This document shows, piece by piece, positions 986-40,856 of a stretch of DNA of 64,000 nucleotides. The DNA is from an uncultured Candidatus Saccharibacteria bacterium (GTDB lineage: Bacteria > Patescibacteriota > Minisyncoccia > Phycocordibacterales > UBA9973). Below the pieces are notes generated by a model. That model was given only the letters and a program-made list of their open reading frames with translations, made no database searches and was not told the origin of the DNA. Made by a program: the position numbers and the translations under genes. Position 1 is the first letter of the stretch. Every line of letters begins with the position of its first letter. The stretch lies in contig CAYRQJ010000002.1 in the NCBI GenBank assembly GCA_964426555.1, positions 29,556 through 93,555 of the forward strand. The letters run 5' to 3'.

Positions 986-1062
986 ATGATTCATCAATTA
1001 ATGTATAACAAATGAACTATAACAAATTATAGTTAAATAGCCAATGTCTTGACAAGATTAAA

Positions 1063-11305: not shown

Positions 11306-12364
11306 ATGCCTACATTAAAAGAAAAACCTTCAAAAGGACAAAAATTGTCTTTTAAACCCAAACAGGTTACTAAAAAATTAATTGGACATCTACAAGACAG
11401 ATCAAGTGACGTTATCGTTAGTAGATTTGGTCTAGGAACTGATTTAGAACACAAAACTCTTGAAGCTATTGGTGAAAAATATGGTATAACTCGCGAACGT
11501 GTAAGACAAATCGAGCATGCAGCGCTTACCGCTATTCGTAAACATTCTTCATTTAAAGAAGAAAATCAAATTTTTGCTGAAATTAAAGTCTTAATGAAAG
11601 AGTTGGGATCAATGGTTGAAGAAGAAGAATTACTAACACATGTATCAAGTGATAAATCTACACAAAATCATATTCATTTCTATTTAGTTTTAGGTGATGA
11701 ATTTAAAAAAATAAAAGAAGATGAACATTTTAAAACAAGATGGCACATTGACGAAGAATTAGCTGGTCAAGTTCATGAAGCTTTGCATGATTTGTATAAA
11801 TCATTAAATGATGGCGAACTTGTGGCTGAAGGAGAATTCATTACATCTTTTATTGAAAGTTGCCGAAGTATTAATAAAGATATTTTATCTGAGGAAATTG
11901 CTAAAAGATATTTACGTACATCAAAAAAGATAGCAAAAAATCCATTAGGAGAATGGGGAAGAGCCGGAACTGCAGGAGTAAAAACTCGCGGGATTAAAGA
12001 TTATGCATATTTAATGATGCGTAAACATGGTTCACCAATGCATTTTCGTGAAGTAGCTAAAGCTATCAGCGAAACATTTGGTAAAAAAACTCACATTGCA
12101 ACATGTCACAATGAATTAATTAAAGACAATCGTTTTATTTTAGTTGGCCGTGGTATATATGCACTGAAAGAATGGGGTTATAAACCAGGAATTGTTCGCG
12201 AAGTAATTAAAGATATCATAAAAAAATATGGTCCAATGACAAAAGAAGATATAGTTGACCATGTAATGAAAGAAAGATATTTAAAGAAAAACACAATACT
12301 TGTTAATCTGCAAAATGCAAAATATTTTAAAAAAGATAAAAGTAATTTATTCACACTTGCATAA
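11306..12364 (+). CDS. Sigma-70 region-4 (HTH) domain protein with approximately 250-aa uncharacterised C-terminal extension
   Basis: VSRFGLGTDLEHKTLEAIGEKYGITRERVRQIEHAALTAIRK matches the sigma70 region 4 consensus. No regions 2 or 3. Confidence 0.55.
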   Translation: MPTLKEKPSKGQKLSFKPKQVTKKLIGHLQDRSSDVIVSRFGLGTDLEHKTLEAIGEKYGITRERVRQIEHAALTAIRKHSSFKEENQIFAEIKVLMKELGSMVEEEELLTHVSSDKSTQNHIHFYLVLGDEFKKIKEDEHFKTRWHIDEELAGQVHEALHDLYKSLNDGELVAEGEFITSFIESCRSINKDILSEEIAKRYLRTSKKIAKNPLGEWGRAGTAGVKTRGIKDYAYLMMRKHGSPMHFREVAKAISETFGKKTHIATCHNELIKDNRFILVGRGIYALKEWGYKPGIVREVIKDIIKKYGPMTKEDIVDHVMKERYLKKNTILVNLQNAKYFKKDKSNLFTLA

Positions 12365-12963: not shown

Positions 12964-14223
12964 ATGATAGAAGTACAATTAGTAAATATTTTATACGGAA
13001 TACTAAAAGTACTTTTAGTATTATTACCTATTCCTTTGGCTTATGTTGCTTATCATATGTGGCATCACTATGTTAGCGAAGCTTTTGTTGCTGGAATTCA
13101 GTGGCAACTTTTAGAAGTTATAATTCCTCAGCAAATCAATAAAACACCATTAGCAATGGAGACCATATTAGCTAATGCAATGTATCACAAATCCCAAAAA
13201 GGTCTTTGGGAAGAATATTGGCAAGGTGCTGTACCTTTTTTCTTTTCATTAGAATTAGTATCAATAGAAGGTAAGATCCATTTTTATATAAATACTCCAT
13301 CACGAGTAGTCCCTCTGATCAAATCACAAATTTATGCACAATATCCGCAATCTAAAGTTTTAGAAGTGGAAGATTATGTATGGTCAGTTCCAAGAATTGG
13401 TAAAAAAACTGGCTGGAGTATGTGGGGTTGTGAATGGGCACTAGAAAAACCTGACCCATTTCCAATTCGTACATATGTAGAATATGGTTTAGATAAAGTA
13501 GTAAAAGACCCGTCAGAGCAAGTTGACCCACTTGTTTCTCTTATTGAATTTATGTCAACAATTGGTCCAGGTGAGCAAATTTGGACTCAATTGATAATTC
13601 GCTGGAATAAAAAAATATATTCTGATGGAAGAGATTTTCCTGGTGAGTGTGATTTTGAATTAAATAAATTAGTTGACCCTTATACAAAAAAAACATTTGA
13701 TGATATTACTGGTGAATTAAAATCTATGGAAGTAAGACCGCCGGATTATTTAAAAGACGAAGTTATGAGTATTTCAGACAAACAACATAAACTTTTGTTT
13801 GAATGTGGCATGCGTACTATCTATTTAGCAAAGACAGATATTTTTGATCAACAAAAACGTAGAGCACTTCGTATGATGTATCGTCAATATAACAGTGCAA
13901 ATTTTAATTCTATAAAGAGAATAAATGCAACACAGTATGATTCACCTTGGGAAGATCCTTTTGATATTGTTTTAACAGTTAGAAAAAATAGAATGCTTGA
14001 CTGGTATCGTTTCCGTACTTTTTTTCATCCACCATGGCAATACTCTTTTAAATATCCATTCCCATTAAATTTATTTATTGTTACAGATCCACCAACATCA
14101 TTTGTTTTAAACACAGAAGAAATAGCAACTCTTTATCATTTCCCAGCTGCATTTACTTCCACTCCGTCACTAAAACGTGTTGAAACAAAGACTAGTAAAG
14201 CTCCTACTGATTTACCTATATAA
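12964..14223 (+). CDS. Hypothetical protein with N-terminal TM anchor
   Basis: Long intact ORF, no recognised motif. Confidence 0.4.
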   Translation: MIEVQLVNILYGILKVLLVLLPIPLAYVAYHMWHHYVSEAFVAGIQWQLLEVIIPQQINKTPLAMETILANAMYHKSQKGLWEEYWQGAVPFFFSLELVSIEGKIHFYINTPSRVVPLIKSQIYAQYPQSKVLEVEDYVWSVPRIGKKTGWSMWGCEWALEKPDPFPIRTYVEYGLDKVVKDPSEQVDPLVSLIEFMSTIGPGEQIWTQLIIRWNKKIYSDGRDFPGECDFELNKLVDPYTKKTFDDITGELKSMEVRPPDYLKDEVMSISDKQHKLLFECGMRTIYLAKTDIFDQQKRRALRMMYRQYNSANFNSIKRINATQYDSPWEDPFDIVLTVRKNRMLDWYRFRTFFHPPWQYSFKYPFPLNLFIVTDPPTSFVLNTEEIATLYHFPAAFTSTPSLKRVETKTSKAPTDLPI

Positions 14224-18915: not shown

Positions 18916-19998
18916 ATGTTTTTTAAAAGAAATAAAAATCCTGATGAGCAAAATAACTTATACATCTCTATAGATGGACGCAGTATTGGTATTTCTTTTT
19001 ATACAGGTTTTATTTGTGATTATTCAGATAGAAGAATTCATATCGCAGGGGAATCAGTTAGACCAATCGAAGCTTTGTTTACTGATATTTTATATGGATT
19101 TAAACATGAAAATAAAAAACCAATAGATAATATTTATGTCATTTTAGAAAATCCTTGGGTAAAAGAAGTTTATACTACAATTAAAGATAAACGACTAAAA
19201 CCATTCGTAGTTACAGAGTCAACAATTAGTGATTTAATAAACAAAGATATAAAAAATAACCAGAATGACAATAAAAATGTCGGTCTTTCTTATGCAGTTG
19301 AACATATTAAGCTTAATGGTTATTCTTACGATGAACCTGTTGGAAAAATATCAGAAGAAATTGAAATCTCTTTAACTAAATTTTATGGGGATAAAGAGAT
19401 TATAGATACTACACAAAAAATTGTTAATGATTTTTGGAATAAAACAAAGATTAGTTATGTAACTGGTCCAGAGTATTTATTTAAGATTGGAAAAAATCTT
19501 TGTGCATTAAACGATATGTTTATAATGCTTGGTTCAACTGACACAACTATTCGGCTATATTCACAATGTATTGTTACTGAAAAAATTATAATCCCATATG
19601 GATACCAAAATTTACTACAAAAATTAAATCAAAAATGGAGTACAGCTTCAACTGATACTGCAAATTGGTTAAATTTATTTTTAAAAAATTCTTTAGATGA
19701 AAAAGAGAAAAATAGAATAGAGTCTGATTTAAAAGAAGCAATTCTTGATTATATTGATTTATTTAACAAAGCTAACTATCAAAAAACATCGTTTATTCTA
19801 GAAAGACCAATTACTGTTTTTGGGGCAGATGATAATTGGAATAAGCTTTTAATTTATATGTTAAAAAATAAATATTTTGGTGAAATTTTCCCACATATTG
19901 AAAATTCAAATATAGTCAATATAACTGATAAAATTAGAGATTTAAAAGGCGATCTTTTAATTGGTGTTTATTTTAGAATGAATACTTTACTTAAATAA
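18916..19998 (+). CDS. Hypothetical protein
   Basis: Intact 360-aa ORF, no recognised motif. Confidence 0.35.
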   Translation: MFFKRNKNPDEQNNLYISIDGRSIGISFYTGFICDYSDRRIHIAGESVRPIEALFTDILYGFKHENKKPIDNIYVILENPWVKEVYTTIKDKRLKPFVVTESTISDLINKDIKNNQNDNKNVGLSYAVEHIKLNGYSYDEPVGKISEEIEISLTKFYGDKEIIDTTQKIVNDFWNKTKISYVTGPEYLFKIGKNLCALNDMFIMLGSTDTTIRLYSQCIVTEKIIIPYGYQNLLQKLNQKWSTASTDTANWLNLFLKNSLDEKEKNRIESDLKEAILDYIDLFNKANYQKTSFILERPITVFGADDNWNKLLIYMLKNKYFGEIFPHIENSNIVNITDKIRDLKGDLLIGVYFRMNTLLK

Positions 19999-19999
19999 T

Positions 20000-20980
20000 A
20001 TGGCCAAAATTACAATAAAAGATATAAAAGTAAAACCTAAGAATGGTATAAATAAACAGGTAGTAATTAGAACATCGCAAACAGAGCCTCAAACTAATAA
20101 AGTTCAAAAATCTATAGAAAAAGAAAAACCCGTAAATGATTTAATAAAAAGCAGTTTTTCTAATAATGACGATACAGAATTTGAAAATTATAAAAAAATA
20201 CAAAAAACTTTAAATAAAACAAATAGAAAGCTGACTAAGTTTTTGGTTATTTTGTTTATCAGCATTTTATTTGTTGTGTTTGGTTTGTATTTTTTTACAA
20301 ATACGTATTTGACTATATCTCCTAAAAAAACAAAGATAAATGTCATATATACCATAAATCACTCGAACTGGAATTATCCAATAAAAGCACAAGTAATGGT
20401 TGTTAGCGATACAGTGTCGAATATAAATGAGTCAATACTTGAACAAGAAAAGGAAAAAATTACTACAAATTTAAATTCTCAAAAAGTATTTAATGCACCC
20501 AAAGGTTATTTAAATTATTCTGGGTGTTCCAGTGGTATTACTTTTTCAACTGAAATATTAGACGAGAAAACAAAAACATTAAATCTAACAGGTACTGAGT
20601 CTTTAATAATTATCGAGAAGCAAAGCCTATTTAATTATATATATAAACAAGGGAACTACGCTGATTCAAATATTAAAGATATCTCTGGATTAAAATGTTC
20701 ATTAAATTCAAACATAACATCTTACAAACAAGGAGTAGCCGCTAATGGGTTATCTTACAACATTACAGGGGAAATAATTTTTGAAAAAAAGATAGAAGAA
20801 GATAAATTTAAAAATTTAATTTCAGGAAATAAAAGAACTAGAATTTTAAATGAATTAAAACTAAATCAAAATATTCAAGAGTATAATTTTGTTTCAAAAC
20901 CTTTAAATTTTATGATGATTTTCCCTAAAAAGGTAAACCAAATTCATATTATTTATAGAGAATCCACAATAATTAATTAA
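20000..20980 (+). CDS. Hypothetical membrane-anchored protein
   Basis: Single TM helix (LVILFISILFVVFGLYFF), then an N/S/T-rich ectodomain. Confidence 0.35.
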   Translation: MAKITIKDIKVKPKNGINKQVVIRTSQTEPQTNKVQKSIEKEKPVNDLIKSSFSNNDDTEFENYKKIQKTLNKTNRKLTKFLVILFISILFVVFGLYFFTNTYLTISPKKTKINVIYTINHSNWNYPIKAQVMVVSDTVSNINESILEQEKEKITTNLNSQKVFNAPKGYLNYSGCSSGITFSTEILDEKTKTLNLTGTESLIIIEKQSLFNYIYKQGNYADSNIKDISGLKCSLNSNITSYKQGVAANGLSYNITGEIIFEKKIEEDKFKNLISGNKRTRILNELKLNQNIQEYNFVSKPLNFMMIFPKKVNQIHIIYRESTIIN

Positions 20981-30116: not shown

Positions 30117-30812
30117 ATGAAGAAATTGATCTTAATTATCGTAATGGCAGTATTACCTTTAGAGTACATATCTGCTCAGTGTGGAAACTCACCGGAGTTT
30201 GTAAAAAATCTTACTAATTACAATAAGCTTTATGCTCATGGTGACACCAGTTTTACCTCATCTGCTGAAAGCTTAAAAGTAGATATCGAAAAAATTAAAA
30301 GAGCTATTAAAGCTCTAGAATCAGTCAAAACTGAGGAAGATTACGCAATCATTCTTGTACTGTGGCCTTTTAGTGAAATTGATGATGAAACTAAAATAGA
30401 CTGGCATTTTGAATACGGGGATAGCAGTTATTGGACTTTTAAACATGGAGATTACACATTACACAAAGAAATTAACAGGCTCTATAATTTGTATCTTGAA
30501 AAACTAGCCAAGAATGAATTTACAATAAAAGCCCTGGCTTTTATTAATGACGAATCAAAAAACATTTCAATGGGGGCAACTAAAAAATTTGAAATTGTTC
30601 CAAAATTTACTTTGCGTAAAAAAATTAACGAGTATTCAAATTATGAAATTTATATTCTTGTTCATTTTTGTTATGAAAAAGAGATGGGGGATTTATCTTC
30701 TATCTTAGATGACAAAGAAGCCCTGCGATTAGCTGCAGATAAATTAGTAAAATCTGATTGTTTGTTGTATAAAGAACTGGGGAAAGAAATGCGAGAAGAA
30801 GTAAATCAATAA
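30117..30812 (+). CDS. Hypothetical secreted protein (signal peptide)
   Basis: MKKLILIIVMAVLPLEYISAQ looks like a signal peptide. Hairpin at 30836-30862 downstream. Confidence 0.4.
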   Translation: MKKLILIIVMAVLPLEYISAQCGNSPEFVKNLTNYNKLYAHGDTSFTSSAESLKVDIEKIKRAIKALESVKTEEDYAIILVLWPFSEIDDETKIDWHFEYGDSSYWTFKHGDYTLHKEINRLYNLYLEKLAKNEFTIKALAFINDESKNISMGATKKFEIVPKFTLRKKINEYSNYEIYILVHFCYEKEMGDLSSILDDKEALRLAADKLVKSDCLLYKELGKEMREEVNQ

Positions 30813-31402: not shown

Positions 31403-31720
31403 ATGGAATTCGCAGTTATTAAAACAGGAGGTAAGCAATACCGTGTCTCAAAAGGGGACACTATTCGTATTGAAAAAATGAAAGACATTGCAGAAGTTGG
31501 CCAAAAGGTAACTTTTGACGAAGTTCTTTTAGTTGATAATGGAAAAGATACAACAATTGGTATGCCATTAATTGATGGGGCAAAAGTTGAAGCAGAAGTT
31601 TCAAAAATTGGCCGTGCTGATAAAGTAATGGTTGTGAAATATTTACAAAAATCTCGCTACCATAAAAAGAACGGTCACCGTCAACCATTTGTAGAAGTAA
31701 AAATTACTGCAATTAAATAA
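31403..31720 (+). CDS. rplU: 50S ribosomal protein L21
   Basis: MEFAVIKTGGKQYRVSKGDTIRIEK is the canonical L21 start. Confidence 0.9.
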   Translation: MEFAVIKTGGKQYRVSKGDTIRIEKMKDIAEVGQKVTFDEVLLVDNGKDTTIGMPLIDGAKVEAEVSKIGRADKVMVVKYLQKSRYHKKNGHRQPFVEVKITAIK

Positions 31721-31730
31721 TACTATTATA

Positions 31731-31759
31731 AAAAACCGCTATGCATAGCGGTTTTTTAT
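31731..31759 (+). terminator. Intrinsic terminator after rplU
   Basis: aaaaaccgctatgcatagcggtttttt. Confidence 0.65.
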
Positions 31760-31781
31760 GTGATATAATTGTAAACAGATT

Positions 31782-34088
31782 ATGCAAAATCCACACATGC
31801 CCGACATACCAATGAACCGTGATGTTACGTATTTTGCTCGTACTAATTTTCGTGGCGGAAATCAAATTTTTGGTATCAAAAGAAAAGACCGTCGTCAGCA
31901 TATGTATGTGTTGGGTAAATCTGGTACAGGTAAATCAGCTCTACTTTCAAATTTGATTATTCAAAATGTTTGGAATGGTGAAGGTGTATGTGTGGTAGAT
32001 CCACACGGAGAGCTTGTTGAGACTGTATTAAAAATGATTCCTGAACATCGACTAAATGATGTTGTATATTTTAACCCAGCAGATACAGAATACTGTATAG
32101 GATTTAACCCACTTGAACTACCTGATCCAAAATATAAACATTTAGTGGCATCTGGGCTAATGGGAATATTTACAAAAATTTGGGCAAATGTATGGTCGTC
32201 TCGTATGGAATACATTATGAACAATACTATCTTAGCATTGCTTGATACTCCAAATTCAACACTACTGGGAATCCCTAGAATGTTAGTGGACAAAGACTAC
32301 CGTCAAGTGATAATTGAGAACCTGAAAGACCCAATTGTTAAAGCTTTTTGGGTACACGAATACGAACAATGGAAAGAACAATTTCGTAACGAAGCTATTG
32401 CTCCTATTCAAAATAAAGTTGGACAATTTCTTTCGTCTTCCATAATTCGTAATATAGTTGGCCAACAAGAAAGTACAATCGACATCTTCAAAATGATGAA
32501 CGAAGGTAAAATTTTCTTAGTCAATGTATCCAAAGGTAGAATAGGTGAAGATAATTCCGCACTACTTGGTGCAATGATTATTACAAAACTTCAGCTTGCT
32601 GCGATGGAACGTGTTCGTATTCCAGAAGACGAAAGAAGAGATTTTTATTTATACGTAGATGAATTCCAAAACTTTGTTACTGATTCTTTTGCTAGTATTT
32701 TATCTGAAGCTAGAAAATACCGTTTGTGTCTTATACTAGCTCACCAATATACTGCCCAAATCGAAGGTGGTGATAATGATTTAAAAGATGCTGTTTTTGG
32801 GAACGTAGGATCAATGGTTATTTTTCGAATTGGATCAGAAGATGCAAAATTATTTGAAAAAGAATTTGCCCCAGAATTTATTCCAGAAGATTTTGTTGGG
32901 CTACCTAACTACCAAGTATTTTTAAAATTAATGATAGACGGGGTAACTAGTAGACCTTTTTCTGCAAATACTCTTCCACCAATTAGAACAAACATTAGTT
33001 TTGATAGTAGCGCCCGAGCAATAGCAGAGTCAAGAAATACTTATTGCCGACCACAAATCCAAGTTGAAAACAATATTAATGCATGGAGCTCGACTTCTGG
33101 TGGAACCACGGTAGAAGCTAAATCAAACCCAGTTACTGGCGGTAAAATGTACCCAGCTGTATGTGTAAATTGTAATAAAGACATAATGGTTCCTTTTGAA
33201 CCTAAAGACGGAAAACCAATTTATTGTAAAGAATGTTTAAATAAAATCAAAGTTGGCGAATTAAAGCCGAATAAAGGTTATTACGATAAAAATTCAAATT
33301 CTGGCCCTAAACCAGCAGAATCATTAGCTATGCTTGGTATTGAATATGATGATTCTATAATAAATTCCAACAATCGAAATAACAAATCAACAAATTTTGT
33401 CAGAACTGGGAATAGTAGTAGCATGGCAAACAACACAGAACCAACTAAGAAATCTTTTGCTCCTAAAAAAGAACCAGAAGATAGTTATAAAGAAAAATTA
33501 TTAAAAGAAGACCCCGTAAAAAAACAAGATGGCTTTGGGTCTTTGAAAGATTTATTAAATAAAGTAGCTCCAACAAATAAAATCCCTCAAGAAAAACCAG
33601 TTTCAAATAATACTCCTATACAAAATGACCCCAAAAAAATAACCCTGCATTCACATACTATTAAAAAAGAAAACAATTTTCCTGAAACTAACACAATACT
33701 AAAAACAAAAGCTGCTAGCTACGAATCTCAACAAATGTTAAAAAATTTAATTGAAACAACAAAACAAACAGTAAATAATTCACCAGTAGTTAGTACTCCA
33801 ATTCAAAAAACCGAGGAGAAAGAAATTGTGGCAACAAAAGAACCTGAAGCAAAAATTGAAAACAAAAAAATAGTAGAACCTGTAGTTGAAGTTACTGAAA
33901 GAAAAATTGAACATATTGTGGAAGATAAGCCAGAGAATGCTGCTGTACCTAAACCACCAGAATCATACAGTAAAAGAACACCAGCAAAAGAAGTTCCTGA
34001 AGATATTTTAAAGCAGGTTTTAAATGATGAAGAAAAACCAGCCAGTACAAATACTAATGTTAATAGTAACCCAAATATAGACCAATAG
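31782..34088 (+). CDS. Soluble VirD4/TraG (T4CP)-type P-loop ATPase paralog 1, with C-terminal zinc ribbon and long low-complexity tail
   Basis: FGIKRKDRRQHMYVLGKSGTGKS (Walker A), DPHGE, FYLYVDEFQNF (Walker B), EARKYRLCLILAHQY. No TM segments. CVNCNKDIMVPFEPKDGKPIYCKEC at nt 33163-33236, then a K/E/P/N-rich tail. Confidence 0.65.
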   Translation: MQNPHMPDIPMNRDVTYFARTNFRGGNQIFGIKRKDRRQHMYVLGKSGTGKSALLSNLIIQNVWNGEGVCVVDPHGELVETVLKMIPEHRLNDVVYFNPADTEYCIGFNPLELPDPKYKHLVASGLMGIFTKIWANVWSSRMEYIMNNTILALLDTPNSTLLGIPRMLVDKDYRQVIIENLKDPIVKAFWVHEYEQWKEQFRNEAIAPIQNKVGQFLSSSIIRNIVGQQESTIDIFKMMNEGKIFLVNVSKGRIGEDNSALLGAMIITKLQLAAMERVRIPEDERRDFYLYVDEFQNFVTDSFASILSEARKYRLCLILAHQYTAQIEGGDNDLKDAVFGNVGSMVIFRIGSEDAKLFEKEFAPEFIPEDFVGLPNYQVFLKLMIDGVTSRPFSANTLPPIRTNISFDSSARAIAESRNTYCRPQIQVENNINAWSSTSGGTTVEAKSNPVTGGKMYPAVCVNCNKDIMVPFEPKDGKPIYCKECLNKIKVGELKPNKGYYDKNSNSGPKPAESLAMLGIEYDDSIINSNNRNNKSTNFVRTGNSSSMANNTEPTKKSFAPKKEPEDSYKEKLLKEDPVKKQDGFGSLKDLLNKVAPTNKIPQEKPVSNNTPIQNDPKKITLHSHTIKKENNFPETNTILKTKAASYESQQMLKNLIETTKQTVNNSPVVSTPIQKTEEKEIVATKEPEAKIENKKIVEPVVEVTERKIEHIVEDKPENAAVPKPPESYSKRTPAKEVPEDILKQVLNDEEKPASTNTNVNSNPNIDQ

Positions 34089-34089
34089 T

Positions 34090-35226
34090 ATGAAAATTTT
34101 ATTAACCGGAGGCGGAACAGGTGGTCATTTTTATCCGCTTATTGCAATAGCAGAAAGAATAAATACTCTTTCAAGAGAAAAGAAGATTCTTGAAGTTGAT
34201 TTGTATTACATGAGTAATGGAAAATATGACGAAAAATCTTTGACTCAAAATAATATTAGTTTTGTATATGTACCTACAGGTAAATTGCGTTTGTATCCAT
34301 CTATAAAAAATGTTACTGATTCATTTAAAATAGTAACCGGTATTATAACTGCATGTTTTAAAATGTTTTTTATTTACCCAGATGTAGTAATTTCCAAAGG
34401 TGGGCATGGTGCGGTACCAGCATTATTTGCAGCTAGATTACTAAAAATTCCAATTATTATTCATGAATCAGATACTTATCCAGGCCGTACAAATGTATGG
34501 TCAGGAAAATTTGCAAAACTAATTACCTTGGCATATAAAGACAGTAACGAAATTTTTGATAAAAATAAAACTGCAGTTATTGGACTACCTATTCGAAATG
34601 AATTATTACATGTGCCAGCTCCAAGCGATGGAGCAAAATATTACGGGCTGGATGAACATATTCCAACTATTTTTGTATACGCAGGGTCACTGGGAGCTGA
34701 AAAAATTAATAATCTAATCTTAGAATCATTACCCGAATTATTAAAAAGTTATCAAATTATTCATCAGTGTGGTATTAAAAATGAAACAGAAGTAAGAAGT
34801 CGGACAAGTATAATACTGGAAGATCATCCTTATAAAAATCGCTATATTATAAAACCGTTTCTGGATGTAATAGACACCAGGCACGCTGCTGCAATTGCAT
34901 CTCTTGTAATTGCCCGCGGTAATTCAACTTTGTTTGAAGTAGCTGCTTGGAAAATACCAGCAATAGTAATACCTATTACTAAAAGTAACGGCAACCACCA
35001 GCACACTAATGCCGTAGCATTTGTCTCTATGGGAGCAGGAGTACTACTGGAAGAACAAAATGCATTGTCGCATTTATTTATTTCAAAAATTAATGAAATA
35101 TTACTACACCCTGATGTATGGCAAAAAATGCATAACTCTATGAAAGATTTTGGAGATATTGACGCAGCTGTTGAAATAGCTCGTGAAGCCATATTAATAG
35201 GCGAATCTCACGAAATAGACGATTAA
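34090..35226 (+). CDS. murG: MurG-type glycosyltransferase (GT28), UDP-GlcNAc:lipid I transferase
   Basis: MKILLTGGGTGGHFYPLIAIAE, GGHGAVP, IIIHESD, AGSLGAEKIN. Collinear with the MurG motifs GGTGGH, HEQN, GGSQGA. Confidence 0.75.
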   Translation: MKILLTGGGTGGHFYPLIAIAERINTLSREKKILEVDLYYMSNGKYDEKSLTQNNISFVYVPTGKLRLYPSIKNVTDSFKIVTGIITACFKMFFIYPDVVISKGGHGAVPALFAARLLKIPIIIHESDTYPGRTNVWSGKFAKLITLAYKDSNEIFDKNKTAVIGLPIRNELLHVPAPSDGAKYYGLDEHIPTIFVYAGSLGAEKINNLILESLPELLKSYQIIHQCGIKNETEVRSRTSIILEDHPYKNRYIIKPFLDVIDTRHAAAIASLVIARGNSTLFEVAAWKIPAIVIPITKSNGNHQHTNAVAFVSMGAGVLLEEQNALSHLFISKINEILLHPDVWQKMHNSMKDFGDIDAAVEIAREAILIGESHEIDD

Positions 35227-35234
35227 AAAAGATT

Positions 35235-36704
35235 ATGTCTTCATTAAAACCCAATAAAATTCAAATCATCAAATATAGTCCGCCGCCATCAGAACTGCCG
35301 GTTCTTGGTGATATGAATCCATCTGAAGTTTCTTTTATTGGGCGAACAAATTATGCTGCAGCGTTGGAAGAAAAAAGATATGTTTTTGGAATTAAACGAA
35401 TAGACCGAAGACGCCATTTATATATTGTTGGAAAATCTGGGGTTGGAAAATCTAAACTTCAAGAATTAATGATTCGTCAAGATATAGCATATGGTTACGG
35501 TGTATGTGTTATAGACCCGCACGGCGAATTAATTGAAGATATTTTAGAATTTGTACCTGAAGACAGAATCGATGATGTTTGTATTATTGACCCGTCTGAC
35601 GATCAATACCCAGTATCTTTTAATCCACTGGCAAATATTGATAGCGGATTTAAACACCAACTTACTCAAGGTCTTATTGAAGTATTAAAAAAACAATTTG
35701 GATCAAACTGGACACCAAGATTGGAACACGTGTTTCGTTTTACCGTATTGGCGCTACTAGACTACCCATACGCTACAATGCGTGGAATGATTAGTATGCT
35801 GACCGACCGTAACTACCGTCAAAAAGTGGTGGAATACATTGAAGACGACATGGTAAAACGTTTTTGGGCAATTGAATTTGCGGACTGGAGTGAAAAATTT
35901 GATACCGATGCGATTATTCCATTGGTTAATAAGCTGGGACAATTTTTGTCTGACCCAATGTTACGAAACATTTTTGGGCAAATTGAGAACAAAGTTGATT
36001 TAGAAAAATTAATGAATGACAAAAAAATTGTTTTTATTAATTTATCCAAAGGTAAAATTGGGGAAGAAAATTCGTCTTTCTTTGGAGCTATGTTTATTAC
36101 AAAAATTAAACAAGCTGGTATGAGCCGTGCAAAATTAGATAAAGCTGATAGACACGACTTTTATTTATATGTAGACGAGTTTCAAAACCTTGTGACTGAT
36201 ACTTTTGAAAACATTTTATCTGAAGCTCGTAAATATGGACTAAATCTTACTGTTGCTCACCAGTATGTAAACCAACTTTTACCTAAAGTTCAGCAAGCCG
36301 TAATGGGAAATGTTGGGTCAATGATTACGTTTCGTGTTGGTGGAGAAGACGCTGTAAAACTAAAGCCCGAATATGCTCCAATATTTGATGTAAAAGACAT
36401 GATTAATCTTGGGGTAGGGGAATTTTATATTAAAATGACAATAGACGGCGAAAGTTACGACCCATTCTCTGCAGAAACATTAAAAGTTTTACCTCCAACA
36501 CATCCGTCTTATAGAGACAGAATTGTACAAGCATCTCGCGAAAAATATTCTATGCCAGTAGACGAAGTTAAGAAGATTTACGAACAAGAAGAATCTATGA
36601 TTGTTCGTAGTGCGTCTGAAAAAGCCGCAGTTACTCGTAGTAATACTGGTGGTGAATCAAACGATGCTCCCGCAAAGATAGTTGAAAGCGAACCATTAAT
36701 TTAG
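35235..36704 (+). CDS. Soluble VirD4/TraG (T4CP)-type P-loop ATPase paralog 2
   Basis: FGIKRIDRRRHLYIVGKSGVGKS, DPHGE, FYLYVDEFQNL, EARKYGLNLTVAHQY. Paralog of 31782..34088 without the tail. Confidence 0.65.
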   Translation: MSSLKPNKIQIIKYSPPPSELPVLGDMNPSEVSFIGRTNYAAALEEKRYVFGIKRIDRRRHLYIVGKSGVGKSKLQELMIRQDIAYGYGVCVIDPHGELIEDILEFVPEDRIDDVCIIDPSDDQYPVSFNPLANIDSGFKHQLTQGLIEVLKKQFGSNWTPRLEHVFRFTVLALLDYPYATMRGMISMLTDRNYRQKVVEYIEDDMVKRFWAIEFADWSEKFDTDAIIPLVNKLGQFLSDPMLRNIFGQIENKVDLEKLMNDKKIVFINLSKGKIGEENSSFFGAMFITKIKQAGMSRAKLDKADRHDFYLYVDEFQNLVTDTFENILSEARKYGLNLTVAHQYVNQLLPKVQQAVMGNVGSMITFRVGGEDAVKLKPEYAPIFDVKDMINLGVGEFYIKMTIDGESYDPFSAETLKVLPPTHPSYRDRIVQASREKYSMPVDEVKKIYEQEESMIVRSASEKAAVTRSNTGGESNDAPAKIVESEPLI

Positions 36705-36743
36705 CTATTAAAATTTAGTTTATAAAAATACAGAATATACTTT

Positions 36744-38441
36744 ATGAATTCCGAAACCCGAAACTGCCAAAATTGTAAATCTGACTTTGTAATAGAGCCA
36801 GATGATTTTGATTTTTATAGCAAAATTGGCGTACCAGCACCAACATGGTGCCCGGAATGCAGAATGATCCGAAGATTTAATTTTCGTAATGAAAAAATGC
36901 TATTTCGTAGACCAGACGGTTTAACCGGTCAAGACATATTTTCTACGTTTTCTCCTGAATCAGAAGTAACTACTTATGAAAACAACTACTGGTTTGGATC
37001 AGAATGGGATCCAAATATTACAGGAAAAGATTACGATTTTAATAAAACTTTCTTTACACAATTTAAAGATCTTTTAAAAGTTGCTCCAATTCCAGCAAGA
37101 TCTGTATTTAAAATGGTAAATTCTGATTATTGTAATGAGGCTAGTGAATCAAAAAATTGTTATTTATGTTTTAATACAGACTTTATAGAAGATTCTGCTT
37201 ATTTAAGGAAAATTAGACAAGTAAAGAATTCATTTGATTTATATGAATGCGAGAACTGTGAACTTAGCTATGAAGGATTAGTTTTAGATAAATGCTATAG
37301 GACATTTTATTCTTTTGGTTTAGAAAATTGTGTAGATGTATGGTTTTCAAAAAATTTACGAGGATGTACTAATTGTTTTGGTTGCGTAAATTTAGTAAAT
37401 AAATCAAATTGTTATTTTAATGAGCAATTAACCAAGGAAGAATATAATAAAAAAATTAGTGAATTTAATTCTGGGTCATATTTTGAAATTGAACAAATAT
37501 TAAAAAAATCTAAGGAATTTTGGATGAAATTCCCAGTTAAATATAACTACAGTTTAAAGAACATAAATGCAACAGGGGATAGGATATTTAATTCTAAAGA
37601 TATCAAGGATTCATACTATATAAAGAATTCTCAAAATTTAACTTACTGCCAAGATGTTTGGAATAAAAGTTCAGACTGTTACGACTATTCAGTATGGGGG
37701 GACGGAGCACAAAATGTATATGAATCAATGACATGTGGGTTAGGAATTTCAAATATAAAATTTTGTTTTAATTGTTGGGAGAATGAACAAAATTTAGAAT
37801 ATTGTGGATACTGTATTGGTTCAAACGATTGTTTTGGATGTATTGGTTTATACAAAAAACAATATTGCATATTAAATAAACAATATACAAAAGAAGAATA
37901 CTTTGAATTACTTCCCAAAATAAAACAGCATATGATGAATATGCCGTATGTTGATTCAAGTAATAGAGTTTTTAAATATGGTGAATTTTTTCCTTATGAC
38001 ATATCACCTGTAGCTTATAACGAAAGCTTAGCTCAAGATTTTTTTCCACTTAATCCTAATAAAATAATAGAAAACGGTTATCAATATAGAGAGATAAAAA
38101 ATAGAGAATTTGAAAAAACTATTTTAGCTAAAGACATACCAGACAATATAAAGGATTTAAATGAAGATTTTATTAAAGAAATTATTGAATGCGAAAACTG
38201 TACAAAAGCATTTAGAATCATACCAATTGAATTTCAATTCTACAAAAATATAAATATCCCTATTCCTAGAAAATGTCAAGATTGCAGATTTACGGAAAGA
38301 TTTAAATTTGTTACAGTTCCAAAATTTTATAATAGAAATTGTATGAATAACGATTGTAATAATACTTTTATTACGCCATACGCTCCAGATAGGCCAGAAA
38401 TAGTGTACTGTGAAAAGTGTTACCAGCAAGAAATGATTTAA
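36744..38441 (+). CDS. Cysteine-rich protein, paralog 1, with N- and C-terminal zinc-ribbon motifs and internally duplicated Cys modules
   Basis: CQNCKSDFVIEPDDFDFYSKIGVPAPTWCPEC at the N-terminus and CENCTKAFRIIPIEFQFYKNINIPIPRKCQDC near the C-terminus. Many CxxC pairs. No signal peptide. Confidence 0.6.
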   Translation: MNSETRNCQNCKSDFVIEPDDFDFYSKIGVPAPTWCPECRMIRRFNFRNEKMLFRRPDGLTGQDIFSTFSPESEVTTYENNYWFGSEWDPNITGKDYDFNKTFFTQFKDLLKVAPIPARSVFKMVNSDYCNEASESKNCYLCFNTDFIEDSAYLRKIRQVKNSFDLYECENCELSYEGLVLDKCYRTFYSFGLENCVDVWFSKNLRGCTNCFGCVNLVNKSNCYFNEQLTKEEYNKKISEFNSGSYFEIEQILKKSKEFWMKFPVKYNYSLKNINATGDRIFNSKDIKDSYYIKNSQNLTYCQDVWNKSSDCYDYSVWGDGAQNVYESMTCGLGISNIKFCFNCWENEQNLEYCGYCIGSNDCFGCIGLYKKQYCILNKQYTKEEYFELLPKIKQHMMNMPYVDSSNRVFKYGEFFPYDISPVAYNESLAQDFFPLNPNKIIENGYQYREIKNREFEKTILAKDIPDNIKDLNEDFIKEIIECENCTKAFRIIPIEFQFYKNINIPIPRKCQDCRFTERFKFVTVPKFYNRNCMNNDCNNTFITPYAPDRPEIVYCEKCYQQEMI

Positions 38442-38447
38442 TTACTT

Positions 38448-38525
38448 TATGAATTCCGAAACCCGAAACTGCCAAAACCCCAAAGAAAATCATATTTCAT
38501 TGCTTTCTACGGGGCAAACTGTAAA
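38448..38525 (+). pseudogene. Duplicated 5' fragment of the Cys-rich gene (MNSETRNCQ...) ending in an early stop
   Basis: 33 nt at 38445-38477 are identical to 36741-36773, which holds the start of paralog 1. Reading frame decays after 9 codons. Confidence 0.5.
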
Positions 38526-38533
38526 ATAAATAT

Positions 38534-40270
38534 ATGGAGAATAGAGAATGTCAGAATTGTCATAATAATTTCACGATTGAGCCGGATGATTTTGGCTTTT
38601 ACGAAAAAATTGGTGTACCAGTACCAACCTTTTGCCGAATTTGCATGAATCAAAGAAGGCTTTCTTTTCGTAATACTCATTCGTTATACAAAAGAAAAGA
38701 TTCATTTACTGGTAAAGATATAATTACAATATATTCTCCAGACAAAGATTTAACTGTAATGGCACAAAAAGATTGGTGGGGTGACAGTTGGAACGCAATG
38801 GATTATGCACAAGATTATGATTTTTCAAAACCATTTTTTACACAGTGGGATAATTTGCGTAACAATGTTCCTATGCAAAGTTTGTCTAATTCCAAAGCAG
38901 TAAATAGTGACTACTGTAATGTTGCCGAAGAAAGCTACGACTGTTATCTTGTTTCTGCATCATGGCGATGTGAAAGATCAATGTATTGTGATGCAGTAAG
39001 CCAAATTAAAGATACTATGGACTGTCATGTAGTAAACAAGTCTGACTTTTGTTATGACGATGTATTATGCCAATCATCTTACAAGCTTTTCTACAGTCAG
39101 GACTGTCATGCTTGTACAGATTCATATTTCCTATACGACTGCAGTGGTTGTACTGATTGTTTTATGTCTTCAAACTTACGTAACAAAAGTTATTGTTTTA
39201 ATAACGTTCAATTAACTAAAGAAGCTTACAAAGAAAAAATGAGTCAAATAAATTTAGGAAGTTTTGAGACTGTGCAATACTTAAAATCCGAATTTGAAAA
39301 AATGCGTTTAAATTCGTTTCATCGATTTAGTAATACATTAAATTCTGTAAATGTTACAGGTAATAACATTGAGAACGCAAAAAATTGTTATTATGCTTTT
39401 GATGCTTTTGAAGGATTAGAAGATTCTAAATATGTATTTTGGGCTGGGTACAAAGGTAAGGAATTTTTCCATTCTGGTCCAGGAGTAGGGGAAGGTGAAT
39501 TAATGTATGAATGTACTGATTGTGGTATAGGTGGTAACCGTAATTTATTTGCTAACGTAACTTATGGTTGCCAAAATATTGAATACTGTATCAACTGTCA
39601 TAATTCTTCAAATTTGTTTGGTTGTATTGGTTTGCGCAGTAAACAATATTGTATTTTCAACAAACAATATACAAAAGAAGAATGGCTGGAATTAATTCCA
39701 AAAATAAAACAACATATGAATGATATGCCATATATAGACAAAGCTGGTGTTGTTTATAAATACGGGGAATTTTTTCCAATTGAATTATCACATTTTTGTT
39801 ATAACGAAACGGTGGCTATGGACTATTATCCACTTACAAAAGAAGAATGTTTAGCCCGGGGTTATAAATGGAAAGACCCTGAAATAAAAAACTACGTGCC
39901 AACAGTTAAATCTACTGATCTACCTGACGATATTGCAATGGTAGGAGACAACATACTAGGAGATATTATTGAATGTGCTCATAAAGGTGAATGTAGCGAT
40001 AGATGTTCCACTGCATTTAAAATTACTGAAAATGAATTAAATTTTTATAAAAGATTCAACATTCCATTACCAAGACTATGTAACGGTTGCAGACATTATG
40101 AAAGATTACATAAAAGAACTCCTATGGATTTATGGCACAGACAATGTATGTGTAATAAATCAAACCATAATCACAGTAGTCAATGTCCCGTAGAATTTGA
40201 AACCGCATACGCCCCAGACAGACCAGAAATAGTGTACTGTGAAAAATGCTATCAACAAGAAGTAATATAA
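38534..40270 (+). CDS. Cysteine-rich protein, paralog 2
   Basis: CQNCHNNFTIEPDDFGFYEKIGVPVPTFCRIC N-terminus; CSTAFKITENELNFYKRFNIPLPRLCNGC C-terminus. Same C-terminal YAPDRPEIVYCEKCYQQE as paralog 1. Confidence 0.6.
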   Translation: MENRECQNCHNNFTIEPDDFGFYEKIGVPVPTFCRICMNQRRLSFRNTHSLYKRKDSFTGKDIITIYSPDKDLTVMAQKDWWGDSWNAMDYAQDYDFSKPFFTQWDNLRNNVPMQSLSNSKAVNSDYCNVAEESYDCYLVSASWRCERSMYCDAVSQIKDTMDCHVVNKSDFCYDDVLCQSSYKLFYSQDCHACTDSYFLYDCSGCTDCFMSSNLRNKSYCFNNVQLTKEAYKEKMSQINLGSFETVQYLKSEFEKMRLNSFHRFSNTLNSVNVTGNNIENAKNCYYAFDAFEGLEDSKYVFWAGYKGKEFFHSGPGVGEGELMYECTDCGIGGNRNLFANVTYGCQNIEYCINCHNSSNLFGCIGLRSKQYCIFNKQYTKEEWLELIPKIKQHMNDMPYIDKAGVVYKYGEFFPIELSHFCYNETVAMDYYPLTKEECLARGYKWKDPEIKNYVPTVKSTDLPDDIAMVGDNILGDIIECAHKGECSDRCSTAFKITENELNFYKRFNIPLPRLCNGCRHYERLHKRTPMDLWHRQCMCNKSNHNHSSQCPVEFETAYAPDRPEIVYCEKCYQQEVI

Positions 40271-40279
40271 ATCAAAAGA

Positions 40280-40310
40280 AAAAAGCTACAAATACATGTA
40301 GCTTTTAAAA
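40280..40310. terminator. Intrinsic terminator (bidirectional)
   Basis: aaaagctacaaatacatgtagctttt. Confidence 0.6.
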
Positions 40311-40329
40311 AATAAGATTTAGAAATGTT

Positions 40330-40461
40330 TTAAAAAACATCTGTCATAATGCCTTTATCGGCATCATCAAGAGCTTTTTGTCCACCAGGAGTTTGAAAGT
40401 ACAGGATTGCTACTGCTATTACAAGCAGTGCGATTGCGATTTTTTTAAGTAAATTTTTCAT
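40330..40461 (-). CDS. Possible small membrane protein (43 aa) MKNLLKKIAIALLVIAVAILYFQTPGGQKALDDADKGIMTDVF
   Basis: Short ORF with one TM helix, below the track threshold. Lies between two terminators. Confidence 0.25.
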   Translation of the reverse strand: MKNLLKKIAIALLVIAVAILYFQTPGGQKALDDADKGIMTDVF

Positions 40462-40532
40462 ATTGTTATATTGAAAATATTATAACACAATATAATTTAT
40501 TAGCAAACATAGTAGGGTAGTGGTGCAATATA

Positions 40533-40560
40533 AAAACCCTTCAGTAAAATGAAGGGTTTT
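40533..40560. terminator. Intrinsic terminator downstream of rpmA
   Basis: aaaacccttcagtaaaatgaagggtttt. Confidence 0.6.
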
Positions 40561-40568
40561 TATATAAA

Positions 40569-40856
40569 CTATTTAGTTGCAGGTAATACTACATGAACTT
40601 GTTTACGAACAGAAGTTGATCCATCGAAATTGTTTTTTCTTTTGTTAGTAAATTTTACTGTACCATCTTTAAGAGCAAACAATGTGTGGTCACGTCCCAT
40701 ACCTATGTTTTCACCAGGAATGATTTTTGTTCCACGTTGACGAATGATGATGTTTCCTGCAATGACTTTTTCTCCAGCGTATTTTTTAGTACCAAGATAC
40801 TTTGGGTTTGAGTCGTTCAGGTTCTTGGCGCTACCGCCGGCTTTTCTATGTGCCAT
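40569..40856 (-). CDS. rpmA: 50S ribosomal protein L27
   Basis: [44 protein letters not shown] is canonical L27. Confidence 0.9.

Follow-up and report, generated by a model that had tools for sequence, protein, structure and literature searches.

The longer of two VirD4-like ATPases encoded in a 64 kb stretch of DNA (the window) from a tiny-celled Patescibacteria bacterium ends in a zinc finger and a long tail, which consists of five collinear conserved motifs split by fast-evolving linkers. We propose, with moderate confidence, that this C-terminal extension is a flexible partner-recruiting arm on a soluble TrwB/VirD4-type motor. The established ground comprises the domain identities, the absence of transmembrane segments, the conserved asymmetry of the two paralogs, the anatomy of motifs and linkers, the homology of the finger and the linkage of the genes; the recruiting role is probable, judging from this anatomy and from an analogy with the C-terminal extensions of T4CPs.

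Patescibacteria carry about two VirD4-like genes per genome, the role of which is an acknowledged open question (PMC12102498). Their T4SS is of the monoderm type, virB4 is close to just 148 of 5713 VirD4 homologues from Patescibacteria and an exaptation has been suggested (PMC12102498). Here, we report that in Paceibacteria the two VirD4-like copies make up a pair of fixed asymmetry, with a finger and a motif-bearing arm on one member, and that the pair is linked to a Cys-rich family sharing the finger. The asymmetric pair and the linked finger family offer concrete handles on the orphan VirD4 question. If the tail does recruit partners to a T4SS-independent motor, a conjugation ATPase would have been exapted for the core biology of ultra-small bacteria.

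The asymmetric ATPase pair

The two ATPase genes and the gene between them are arranged as follows.

31782..34088, + strand: long paralog gene (ORF call), 768 aa, ATPase core followed by zinc finger and tail
31782..33131, + strand: ATPase core of the long paralog, aa 1-450, without a transmembrane segment
31914-31937, + strand: Walker A of the long paralog, GKSGTGKS (aa 45-52), invariant in the homologue alignment
32646-32666, + strand: Walker B of the long paralog, YLYVDEF (~aa 289-295), with YVDEF invariant in the homologue alignment
34090..35226, + strand: murG, between the paralogs, its start 1 nt past the stop of the long paralog
35235..36704, + strand: short paralog, 489 aa, with an ATPase core like that of the long paralog, no zinc finger and a 48-aa C-terminal stub

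The long paralog belongs to the TrwB/VirD4-like P-loop ATPases and lacks a transmembrane domain. It matches the Pfam families TrwB_AAD_bind (PF10412; 49.6 bits, cut-off 20.5) and TraG-D_C (PF12696; 24.4 bits, cut-off 22), with further matches to DUF87 (36.2 bits) and zf_Tbcl_2 (47.3 bits), and its sole match in a profile search of the PDB is TrwB itself (1e9r/1gl6; E 5e-7). At least 8000 homologues are present in the database, and the core shares a mean identity of 77% with the aligned homologues. The two paralogs, which are 46% identical over 418 aa, both retain intact, conserved Walker A and Walker B motifs. Neither protein has a transmembrane segment, the maximal 19-aa Kyte-Doolittle mean being 1.2 in the long and 1.0 in the short paralog; Walker A of the long paralog begins at aa 45, and the N-terminal transmembrane domain of two or more helices is missing.

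In their conservation and synteny, both genes resemble core genes. The neighbours of the long paralog are L21, murG, the short ATPase and the Cys-rich proteins described below, with no small polytopic membrane protein among them, and a Pfam survey of 45 of the 50 window ORFs of at least 150 aa found no gene for a T4SS (VirB4 etc.), a relaxase or a small membrane partner. The murG assignment comes from matches above the Pfam cut-offs to both the N- and C-terminal Glyco_transf_28 domains and from a TIGR01133 score of 198.9 bits, which is under the equivalog cut-off of 250.25; the gene also lies between the two ATPase genes in the closest relatives (L003-L011). In most relatives, the gene of the long paralog is followed by one for an LTD protein.

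The first-pass annotation had described the second paralog as stopping soon after its core and had drawn attention to the asymmetry of the pair, and both observations were borne out. The core of the short paralog extends to aa 441 and is followed by just 48 aa, in which neither Pfam nor NCBIfam detects a zinc finger; at its N-terminus the protein bears a conserved peptide of its own, and at its C-terminus EPLI. Its gene lies on the same strand as the long gene, within 8 kb of it. Flank-encoded short orthologues were found in 56 of 81 species-level loci, and all 56 (445-536 aa) lack the finger; every short paralog near a long gene is without finger and without tail. Where the flanks are complete, the short paralog is present in 34 of 37 loci, and in the remaining three the Cys-rich arrays reach the locus edge. 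The long orthologues, for their part, keep a finger and an in-frame tail of 125-534 aa in all 81 species-level genomes and in the 120 best database homologues, so the asymmetry is evolutionarily fixed. Since none of the related genomes examined departs from this layout, the tail is real and probably partner-recruiting rather than junk. The compared loci are fairly close kin (Nomurabacteria, Paceibacteria), and the linkage of the genes may therefore partly reflect inherited synteny instead of functional coupling.

The zinc finger and the Cys-rich neighbours

Directly past the core, the long paralog carries a finger of a type that recurs at the ends of two downstream proteins.

33144..33248, + strand: CxxC-x17-CxxC zinc finger of the long paralog, aa 455-489, with Cys codons at 33162-33236, followed by a conserved KIKxGELKP
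36744..38441, + strand: Cys-rich protein 1, 565 aa, with an N-terminal treble clef, a beta-solenoid and a terminal CxxxxC-x17-CxxC finger at 38340-38420
38534..40270, + strand: Cys-rich protein 2, 578 aa, a paralog of Cys-rich protein 1 (41% identical), terminal finger matching PF23477 at E 9e-3

The peptide CVNCNKDIMVPFEPKDGKPIYCKEC, originally placed at 33163-33236, is present, although the first Cys codon begins at 33162. Its four cysteines (C461-x2-C464-x17-C482-x2-C485) are invariant in the homologue alignment. The finger scores 47.3 bits on PF23477 (zf_Tbcl_2; cut-off 27), a match that covers aa 455-489, and 50.1 bits on TIGR04272 (CxxC-x17-CxxC; cut-off 36); these matches are far above chance and identify a bona fide domain. 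The AF2 pLDDT over the finger is 70-86. [quoted passage not shown]

A kinship between this finger and the terminal ribbons of the Cys-rich proteins, raised as a check at first reading, is confirmed by profile alignment (HHalign 95.2%, E 2.7e-8). The terminal fingers of the Cys-rich proteins also give sub-threshold matches to PF23477 (E 5e-4 and 9e-3), which support the relation, and among 1065 locus ORFs the finger HMM matches only the long ATPase and the Cys-rich families. The treble clef at the N-terminus of the same proteins (PF13451) was also considered as a relative of the ATPase finger, which the profile alignment does not support (HHalign 7%). Cys-rich genes occur in 44 of the 81 loci, mostly between or beside the ATPase genes, with none within 8 kb in the other 37; the solenoid family comprises at least 7,000 uncharacterised proteins.

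Motifs and linkers of the tail

The tail occupies aa 486-768. It was expected after the finger and is found there, at 283 aa instead of the estimated length of about 300 aa. Lysine (14.5%), asparagine (11.3%), glutamate (10.6%), proline (8.8%), serine (7.8%) and threonine (7.4%) dominate its composition, and its entropy is 3.83 bits, versus 4.18 bits for the core. The mean hydropathy is -1.08, and by its charge and hydropathy the tail falls among disordered sequences; together with the composition, this indicates that the tail is probably intrinsically disordered. An AF2 model built with 62 homologues is poor (mean pLDDT 53.7, much of the core below 50), so that low pLDDT in the tail is a weak sign of disorder. 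By our own arithmetic, a 283-codon open frame would arise by chance in DNA of 33% GC with p ~3e-10, and the opposite strand of the region has no ORF of 60 aa or more. TRF found no tandem DNA repeats in the tail; with this result and a weak likeness of M2 to M4 (E 0.49), the notion that the tail is a DNA or protein repeat was rejected.

Embedded in the tail are the following elements.

33315..33347, + strand: M1, aa 512-522, AESLAMLGIEY; consensus PLAxLGIEF
33519..33566, + strand: M2, aa 580-595, KKQDGFGSLKDLLNKV; consensus KxxGPSPLLKGLLxKI
33636..33659, + strand: M3, aa 619-626, KITLHSHT; consensus P[IM]SLSxLK, degenerate in the window protein
33708..33752, + strand: M4, aa 643-657, KAASYESQQMLKNLI; consensus KEASEEKKxSLKDLL
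33963..34025, + strand: M5, the C-terminal peptide, aa 728-748, SYSKRTPAKEVPEDILKQVLN; consensus SWQKRKxKKEVPEDVLRKVLE
34026..34088, + strand: extension after M5 and stop codon, 20 aa, N/T-rich and lineage-specific, gapped in 84% of the aligned homologues and with 3% identity

The label 'low-complexity' given to the tail at first thus holds for its biased composition and lower entropy, but not for its organization, since the five conserved islands show that it is not featureless. Identity to the window protein is 31-60% within the islands versus 12-16% in the linkers. The HMM of M1 finds its motif in 77 of 81 species loci, at a fixed 10-19 aa past the finger, with L515, G519, I520 and E521 conserved at 97% or more. 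M2 (68 of 81 loci) has an invariant L588 and L591 and L592 conserved at 96% or more, and M4 (66 of 81) retains K643, A645 and L653 at 97% or more. M3 is detected in 26 of 81 loci and scores 6.9 bits in the window protein; its L622 is 97% conserved. M5 (KEVPEDVLRKVLE) has four invariant residues (E737, P739, E740 and L743). It is present in 77 of 81 species loci, where it forms the exact C-terminus in 57 and lies at most 13 aa from it in all 77, and it also ends finger-less relatives with long tails. The order M1 to M5 is constant in all loci while the spacers vary, the M4-M5 gap ranging from 11 to 201 aa. The HMMs of the five motifs matched no other ORF in the window, in the near-identical relative L084 or in a set of 83 loci (1065 ORFs), and the literature on CxxC-x17-CxxC proteins, patescibacterial VirD4, parcubacterial TrwB and disordered T4CP tails yielded no description of such an M1-M5 tail.

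These data bear directly on the view that the tail is a non-functional appendage, i.e. a tolerated low-complexity extension or read-through without a specific role. Its linkers have indeed diverged to near-random identity (12-16%) and differ four-fold in length, and its composition is biased. Nevertheless, the frame is open in every orthologue, five islands with invariant residues stand in fixed order and M5 is the very C-terminus in 57 of 77 species; the conservation data thus already contradict this view, and we consider it extremely improbable.

The short helices predicted by AF2 coincide exactly with M1, M2, M4 and M5: helices are predicted at 511-517 in the M1 region, at 588-595 in M2 and at 647-664 in the M4 region (pLDDT 57-72). 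The hydrophobic moments of M2 (about 0.5), M4 and M5 are 0.47-0.63, within the range computed for the targeting helices of E. coli FtsA and MinD. The amphipathic helices of M2, M4 and possibly M5 might accordingly bind the membrane peripherally and replace the N-terminal transmembrane domain of T4CPs, a segment that neither paralog possesses. Among 136 diverse relatives, those with an N-terminal extension of 150-540 aa (30 of them with clear transmembrane helices) mostly have a short C-terminal tail and those without one mostly a long tail, which fits alternative solutions to anchoring. However, the motifs are on average only weakly hydrophobic, neither M1 nor M3 is amphipathic, and M5 is highly charged with its invariant E737, P739 and E740, a pattern typical of protein docking and not of lipid binding; five distinct conserved motifs also exceed what a tether needs. 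We regard membrane tethering as unlikely.

Small zinc fingers are often nucleic-acid binders, and lysine is the commonest residue of the tail. TrwB, among other T4CPs, is a DNA-dependent ATPase (PMC7434980). It is therefore conceivable that DNA or RNA is bound by the finger together with the lysine-rich tail and passed on to a DNA-translocating ring, for example in chromosome segregation or DNA uptake, independently of a T4SS. The rarity of virB4 near patescibacterial VirD4-like genes and the suggested exaptation (PMC12102498) agree with such a role, as does a setting amid envelope and division genes (murG here; murB, ddl, alr and an M23 peptidase at locus L001). On the other hand, the tail is not polycationic: 45 K+R are set against 42 D+E, leaving it near neutral, and the median net charge over 81 orthologues is +0.027 per residue. 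Leucines and acidic residues are conserved rather than basic patches, and neither FtsK gamma nor another known DNA-binding domain was matched. A nucleic-acid handle is thus an improbable role for the extension.

The layout of core, variable disordered linker and C-terminal peptide parallels that of FtsZ, and ftsA, ftsZ, mreB and murG all lie in the same window. M5 (EVPEDVLRK) could in principle mimic the C-terminal peptide of FtsZ, bind FtsA or SepF and direct the motor to the septum, where it would act like FtsK: the FtsZ peptide of this lineage reads SVPAFLRR, FtsZ of L084 ends in SVPAFLRRNKR, and V-P...L-R-[KR] is shared. The alignment of the peptides, however, needs a one-residue insertion within the helix, and the likeness is short enough to be due to chance. 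Moreover, the M5 HMM misses the FtsZ C-terminus among the ORFs of at least 60 codons in the window and L084, its best non-self match (E 5.9) not being FtsZ; mimicry of FtsZ is for this reason kept only as a very unlikely alternative.

In the recruitment reading that we prefer, the long paralog would be a soluble hexameric P-loop ATPase with an arm directly past its core, made up of a zinc-binding finger and a disordered linker bearing M1-M5, with M5 as its conserved C-terminal peptide. The motifs, mostly amphipathic mini-helices of the form L-x-x-[LV]-[LK], would dock partner proteins to the motor, and the short paralog, which has no tail, would provide bare ATPase subunits, whether within a mixed ring or as a second one. 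Among candidate partners, the products of the conserved neighbours would be the likeliest: the Cys-rich beta-solenoid proteins, which have the same finger type, and the short paralog. Docking, the identity of the partners, hetero-oligomerization and the cargo of the motor, like the disorder of the linker, are what we infer here. A wider proposal, which we hold to be speculative and rather doubtful, is that both orphan ATPases and the tandem zinc-finger-capped Cys-rich solenoids constitute an unrecognized T4SS-independent housekeeping machine. It would be widely distributed among Paceibacteria and derive by exaptation from the coupling proteins of conjugation, and in it the tail of the long subunit and the shared finger type would recruit the solenoids or attach the motor to either the envelope or the divisome.

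Comparison with coupling proteins and other motors

Several ATPase families and systems were compared with the pair. A Pfam scan gave no match to FtsK_SpoIIIE or Ftsk_gamma at E <= 0.01. The DUF87 match (36.2 bits; cut-off 23.2) that recalls HerA overlaps the T4CP models on the P-loop region, with no HAS-barrel match and weak PADLOC HerA matches. An anti-phage defence ATPase was considered and rejected: PADLOC returned generic P-loop matches (mad8, 46-55 bits, and the weak HerA) and none for the Cys-rich proteins. The curated NCBIfam models for TraD, CD1115 and CedD were not reached, the long paralog scoring at best 43.5 bits against a cut-off of 366 and the short paralog 55.9 bits (cut-off 366) and 53.9 bits (cut-off 250).

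The closest likeness is to TrwB of R388 and the VirD4 T4CPs, with which the long paralog has in common the P-loop nucleotide-binding domain with an all-alpha insertion and Walker A and B. It differs in the lack of an N-terminal transmembrane domain and of T4SS or relaxase neighbours, and in being chromosomal, core-like and duplicated. TraJ (Orf10) of pIP501 is a T4CP without a transmembrane domain that works with the membrane protein TraI (Orf9) in a monoderm-type system (PMC7434980). Both TraJ and the long paralog are soluble coupling-protein ATPases of monoderm-type systems; TraJ, however, is encoded in a conjugation operon beside its membrane partner, whereas the long paralog has neither and carries a finger and a tail of ~280 aa.

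The C-terminal extensions of T4CPs recruit substrates and adaptors; TraD binds TraM, and DotL binds IcmSW, LvgA and DotN (PMC7434980), interactions that would serve as the models for docking by M1-M5. The extensions of F TraD and Legionella DotL are likewise flexible and carry short recruiting segments, which in TraD include the extreme C-terminal peptide. Nevertheless, they have no sequence similarity to the tail of the long paralog and, like the known T4CP tails in general, are acidic where it is near neutral, and the long paralog has leucine-based motifs and a finger before its tail. The CxxC-x17-CxxC proteins of M. mazei share the Cys spacing of the finger but are small and stand alone, whereas here the module is fused to an ATPase, with variants in the Cys-rich neighbours. 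Finally, a conserved terminal peptide on a variable linker follows the same logic as in the FtsZ and SSB hubs, although the long paralog belongs to another fold and family, has four extra internal motifs and ends in a peptide whose profile does not match that of FtsZ.

The paralog pair and its surroundings

The window encodes two paralogous ATPases, long and short, and the surroundings of the long paralog are housekeeping in character: ftsZ/ftsA, mreB, frr, typA, alaS, dnaK/dnaJ, cysS, asnB, gltX and ATP synthase genes.

Features of the window
1-1040 (-): ftsZ, cut by the window start
1063-2241 (-): ftsA, upstream of ftsZ
31782-34088 (+): long paralog (ATPase paralog 1), ORF of 768 aa
35235-36704 (+): short paralog (ATPase paralog 2), 489 aa, 46% identical to the long paralog over 418 aa
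36744-38441 (+): Cys-rich 1
38534-40270 (+): Cys-rich 2, a paralog of Cys-rich 1

Residues 34-351 of the long paralog match models of type IV coupling proteins (T4CPs; TrwB_AAD_bind, 49.6 bits; DUF87, 36.2; TraG-D_C, 24.4). Residues 455-489 match PF23477 zf_Tbcl_2 (47.3 bits, cut-off 27) and TIGR04272 CxxC-x17-CxxC (50.1 bits, cut-off 36); judged by these profiles, the finger is a genuine member of TIGR04272/PF23477. [quoted passage not shown] The first-pass annotation, which had described a zinc ribbon and a long tail after the ATPase core, is confirmed by the two above-cut-off matches and by a tail of 283 aa after the last Cys; its finger start of 33163 is one nucleotide off, since the four Cys codons occupy nt 33162-33236. 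The tail is rich in K (14.5%), N (11.3%), E (10.6%), P (8.8%), S (7.8%) and T (7.4%), with a net charge near zero (45 K+R, 42 D+E). With a mean hydropathy of -1.08, it falls in the disordered region of a charge-hydropathy plot, in keeping with the disorder suspected earlier. Neither tandem repeats (TRF) nor a competing ORF on the opposite strand were found in the tail, and neither paralog contains a stretch hydrophobic enough for a TM helix.

The short paralog stops 48 aa past the part of the core that aligns, and no zinc-finger model of Pfam or NCBIfam matches it, so the view that it ends soon after its core without ribbon or tail holds. The asymmetry runs both ways, since the short paralog carries conserved terminal peptides of its own: KPNKIQIIKYxPPPxxLPxLG at the N-terminus (window 35235-35330) and EPLI at the C-terminus (36690-36701), each at least 70% conserved among 56 orthologues and absent from the long paralog.

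Elsewhere in the window, a 352-aa protein (11306-12364, +) unusually combines an N-terminal Sigma70 region-4 (aa 26-79) with a HARE-HTH (aa 230-290). ORFs of 231-554 aa at 2951-4615 (-), 12964-14223 (+), 18916-19998 (+), 20000-20980 (+) and 30117-30812 (+) have no Pfam match at the thresholds used; the 554-aa protein is conserved beside ybeY and ftsA in two relatives' loci (L084, L085). In a near-identical relative, complete FtsZ (L084, 5093-6328) contains a linker of about 70 aa and terminates in DDWSSVPAFLRRNKR.

Conservation of the tail and its motifs

A search of 5.8 billion proteins gave at least 8000 homologues of the long paralog, and the best 120 (54-99% identical, 686-843 aa) all have CxxC-x17-CxxC followed by 203-370 aa. 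A one-genome-per-species scan yielded 505 confirmed loci; the best 80 and three from contig look-ups were analysed, and removal of two duplicates left 81, which carry labels such as Nomurabacteria or Paceibacteria. In every one of the 81, the long paralog has the finger, followed by 125-534 aa of tail (median 263). Orthologues thus keep the tail, and a read-through or frameshift origin is excluded for all those examined. At 56 of the 81 loci a short paralog is encoded on the same strand no more than 8 kb away; it is always 445-536 aa long and never has a finger. Of the 37 loci with 7 kb or more of sequence on each flank, 34 have it; in the other three, Cys-rich gene arrays extend to the locus edge. 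BLAST splits long and short paralogs cleanly (about 700 versus 400 bits), from which we infer that the duplication predates the radiation of the compared loci.

Alignment of 121 tails revealed five islands amid unalignable linker.

Tail motifs (numbering of the window protein) and species with an HMM match
M1, aa 512-522: PLAxLGIEF; 77 of 81
M2, aa 580-595: KxxGPSPLLKGLLxKI; 68 of 81
M3, aa 619-626: P[IM]SLSxLK; 26 of 81 (motif short, HMM low-powered)
M4, aa 643-657: KEASEEKKxSLKDLL; 66 of 81
M5, aa 728-748: SWQKRKxKKEVPEDVLRKVLE; 77 of 81

Compared with the window protein, identity is 0.77 for the core, 0.69 for the finger, 0.31-0.60 for the islands and 0.12-0.16 for the linkers; an alignment of 62 sequences shows no variation at L588, A645, E737, P739, E740 and L743, and an L-x-x-[LV]-[LK] core is common to most islands. 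Motif order is constant across the 81 species while spacers vary (M4 to M5, 11-201 aa). M5 is the exact C-terminus of 57 of 77 proteins and lies within 13 aa of the end in all 77. The window protein is unusual in its 20-aa N/T-rich extension past M5 (DEEKPASTNTNVNSNPNIDQ, 34026-34085), which is missing in 84% of homologues, where M5 is the true C-terminus. Such conservation contradicts a functionless appendage, which we consider highly improbable. The motif HMMs matched no other protein of the window or loci. Some relatives with an altered finger (P0241, P0244; fourth zinc ligand Cys to His, …YCKEH…, or a longer first knuckle, CSRFDEC) still have the tail and M5.

Possible roles of the tail

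The window gene order is rplU (L21), long paralog, murG, short paralog, Cys-rich 1, Cys-rich 2; murG begins 1 nt past the long paralog's stop, and no terminator-like site was found on the + strand from 31461 to 40684. A 10-bp palindromic hairpin between A- and T-runs (40281-40306), 11 nt past the Cys-rich 2 stop, was reported by the scan for the minus strand only; being symmetric, it may also terminate the gene string from L21 to Cys-rich 2. The closest relatives (loci L003-L011) have the identical order, and the larger clade has short paralog, 0-5 Cys-rich genes, long paralog and LTD-domain protein. The last, a secreted lamin-tail (PF00932) protein of about 480 aa, directly follows the long paralog in 65 of 83 loci (e.g. 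L001, 12197-13675), a position taken by murG in the window's clade.

Cys-rich genes occur at 44 of 81 loci (94 copies), starting at most 200 nt past the short paralog's stop in 18. The suspected similarity of the ATPase ribbon to their terminal ribbons was borne out by profile comparison (HHalign probability 95.2%, E 2.7e-8, 31 columns); the N-terminal treble clef of these proteins gave no alignment (7%). A canonical CxxC-x17-CxxC is found at the C-terminus of many members of the family, and some have another near aa 52-82; a window copy has CxxxxC as first knuckle, and both window fingers match PF23477 below threshold (E 5e-4, 9e-3).

A conserved finger after the core, fast-evolving linkers of variable length, short, apparently helical motifs in fixed order and a terminal peptide would make the tail a disordered arm presenting docking motifs. 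As this anatomy is a docking-arm signature, we lean towards an arm that recruits or tethers, carried by one of the subunits in a two-paralog motor, a reading with roughly even odds of being correct; its most plausible partners are the short paralog encoded nearby and the Cys-rich proteins, which share the finger. An AF2 model places short helices on M1, M2, M4 and M5, to which we give little weight because it is poor overall (pLDDT 53.7). The resemblance to an adaptor-tailed motor pair suggested earlier has partial support: the asymmetry is real and fixed in 81 of 81 loci, and recruitment itself is the favoured reading. A nucleic-acid handle formed by finger and tail is unlikely, given the tail's neutral charge and conserved positions that are leucines and acidic residues. 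Mimicry of the FtsZ peptide by M5 is rated lower still, because the M5 profile does not pick up SVPAFLRRNKR, with which FtsZ ends in this lineage.

Searching 1.84 billion representatives with the core alone (aa 1-450) gave 23,692 relatives, 6,571 at E 1e-30 or better. Among 136 complete sequences from the best 150, 62 lack an N-extension and have 150 aa or more of C-tail (at least 17 with the finger), 58 have an N-terminal extension of 150-540 aa and mostly short C-tails (clear TM helices in 30), and 16 are short or mid-length; M5 also ends at least eight finger-less family members. Long C-tail and N-terminal membrane module thus seem to be alternative additions to a common ATPase core. This complementary distribution, and the amphipathic M2 and M4, would suit a peripheral membrane tether, to which we assign a low probability. 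Close relatives with an N-extension (P0273, P0274, P0277, P0286, P0289 and about 50 other representatives; core 48-57% identical) carry 300-540 aa that include TM helices and a conserved region, TPLAAEQMFAxLHG, without a Pfam match; with C-tails that are usually short, they represent an alternative family architecture.

Comparison with known coupling proteins

Reviews of T4CPs recognize a subfamily lacking the transmembrane domain (TMD), as in pIP501 TraJ with membrane TraI, and heterogeneous C-terminal domains that recruit partners, as in TraD-TraM and the DotL tail with IcmSW (PMC7434980). In Patescibacteria, a 2025 census counted 5,713 VirD4 homologues in 2,918 genomes, only 148 near virB4, and held that exaptation 'cannot be ruled out' (PMC12102498). 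Scanning 45 of the 50 window ORFs of at least 150 aa against Pfam found no VirB4, other type IV secretion system (T4SS) part or relaxase. The long paralog resembles T4CPs in its HMM match, but it lacks the defining TMD and T4SS linkage and reaches none of the curated equivalog cut-offs; the right name for it is T4CP-like, not coupling protein. On our analysis it is a coupling-protein-type ATPase with a putative C-terminal recruitment extension. The family is already labelled by domains in databases; a description of the five-motif tail was not found in the literature searched, and neither this tail nor the fixed paralog asymmetry nor the link with the Cys-rich family appears to have been described. 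These three features make the question of orphan patescibacterial T4CPs testable.
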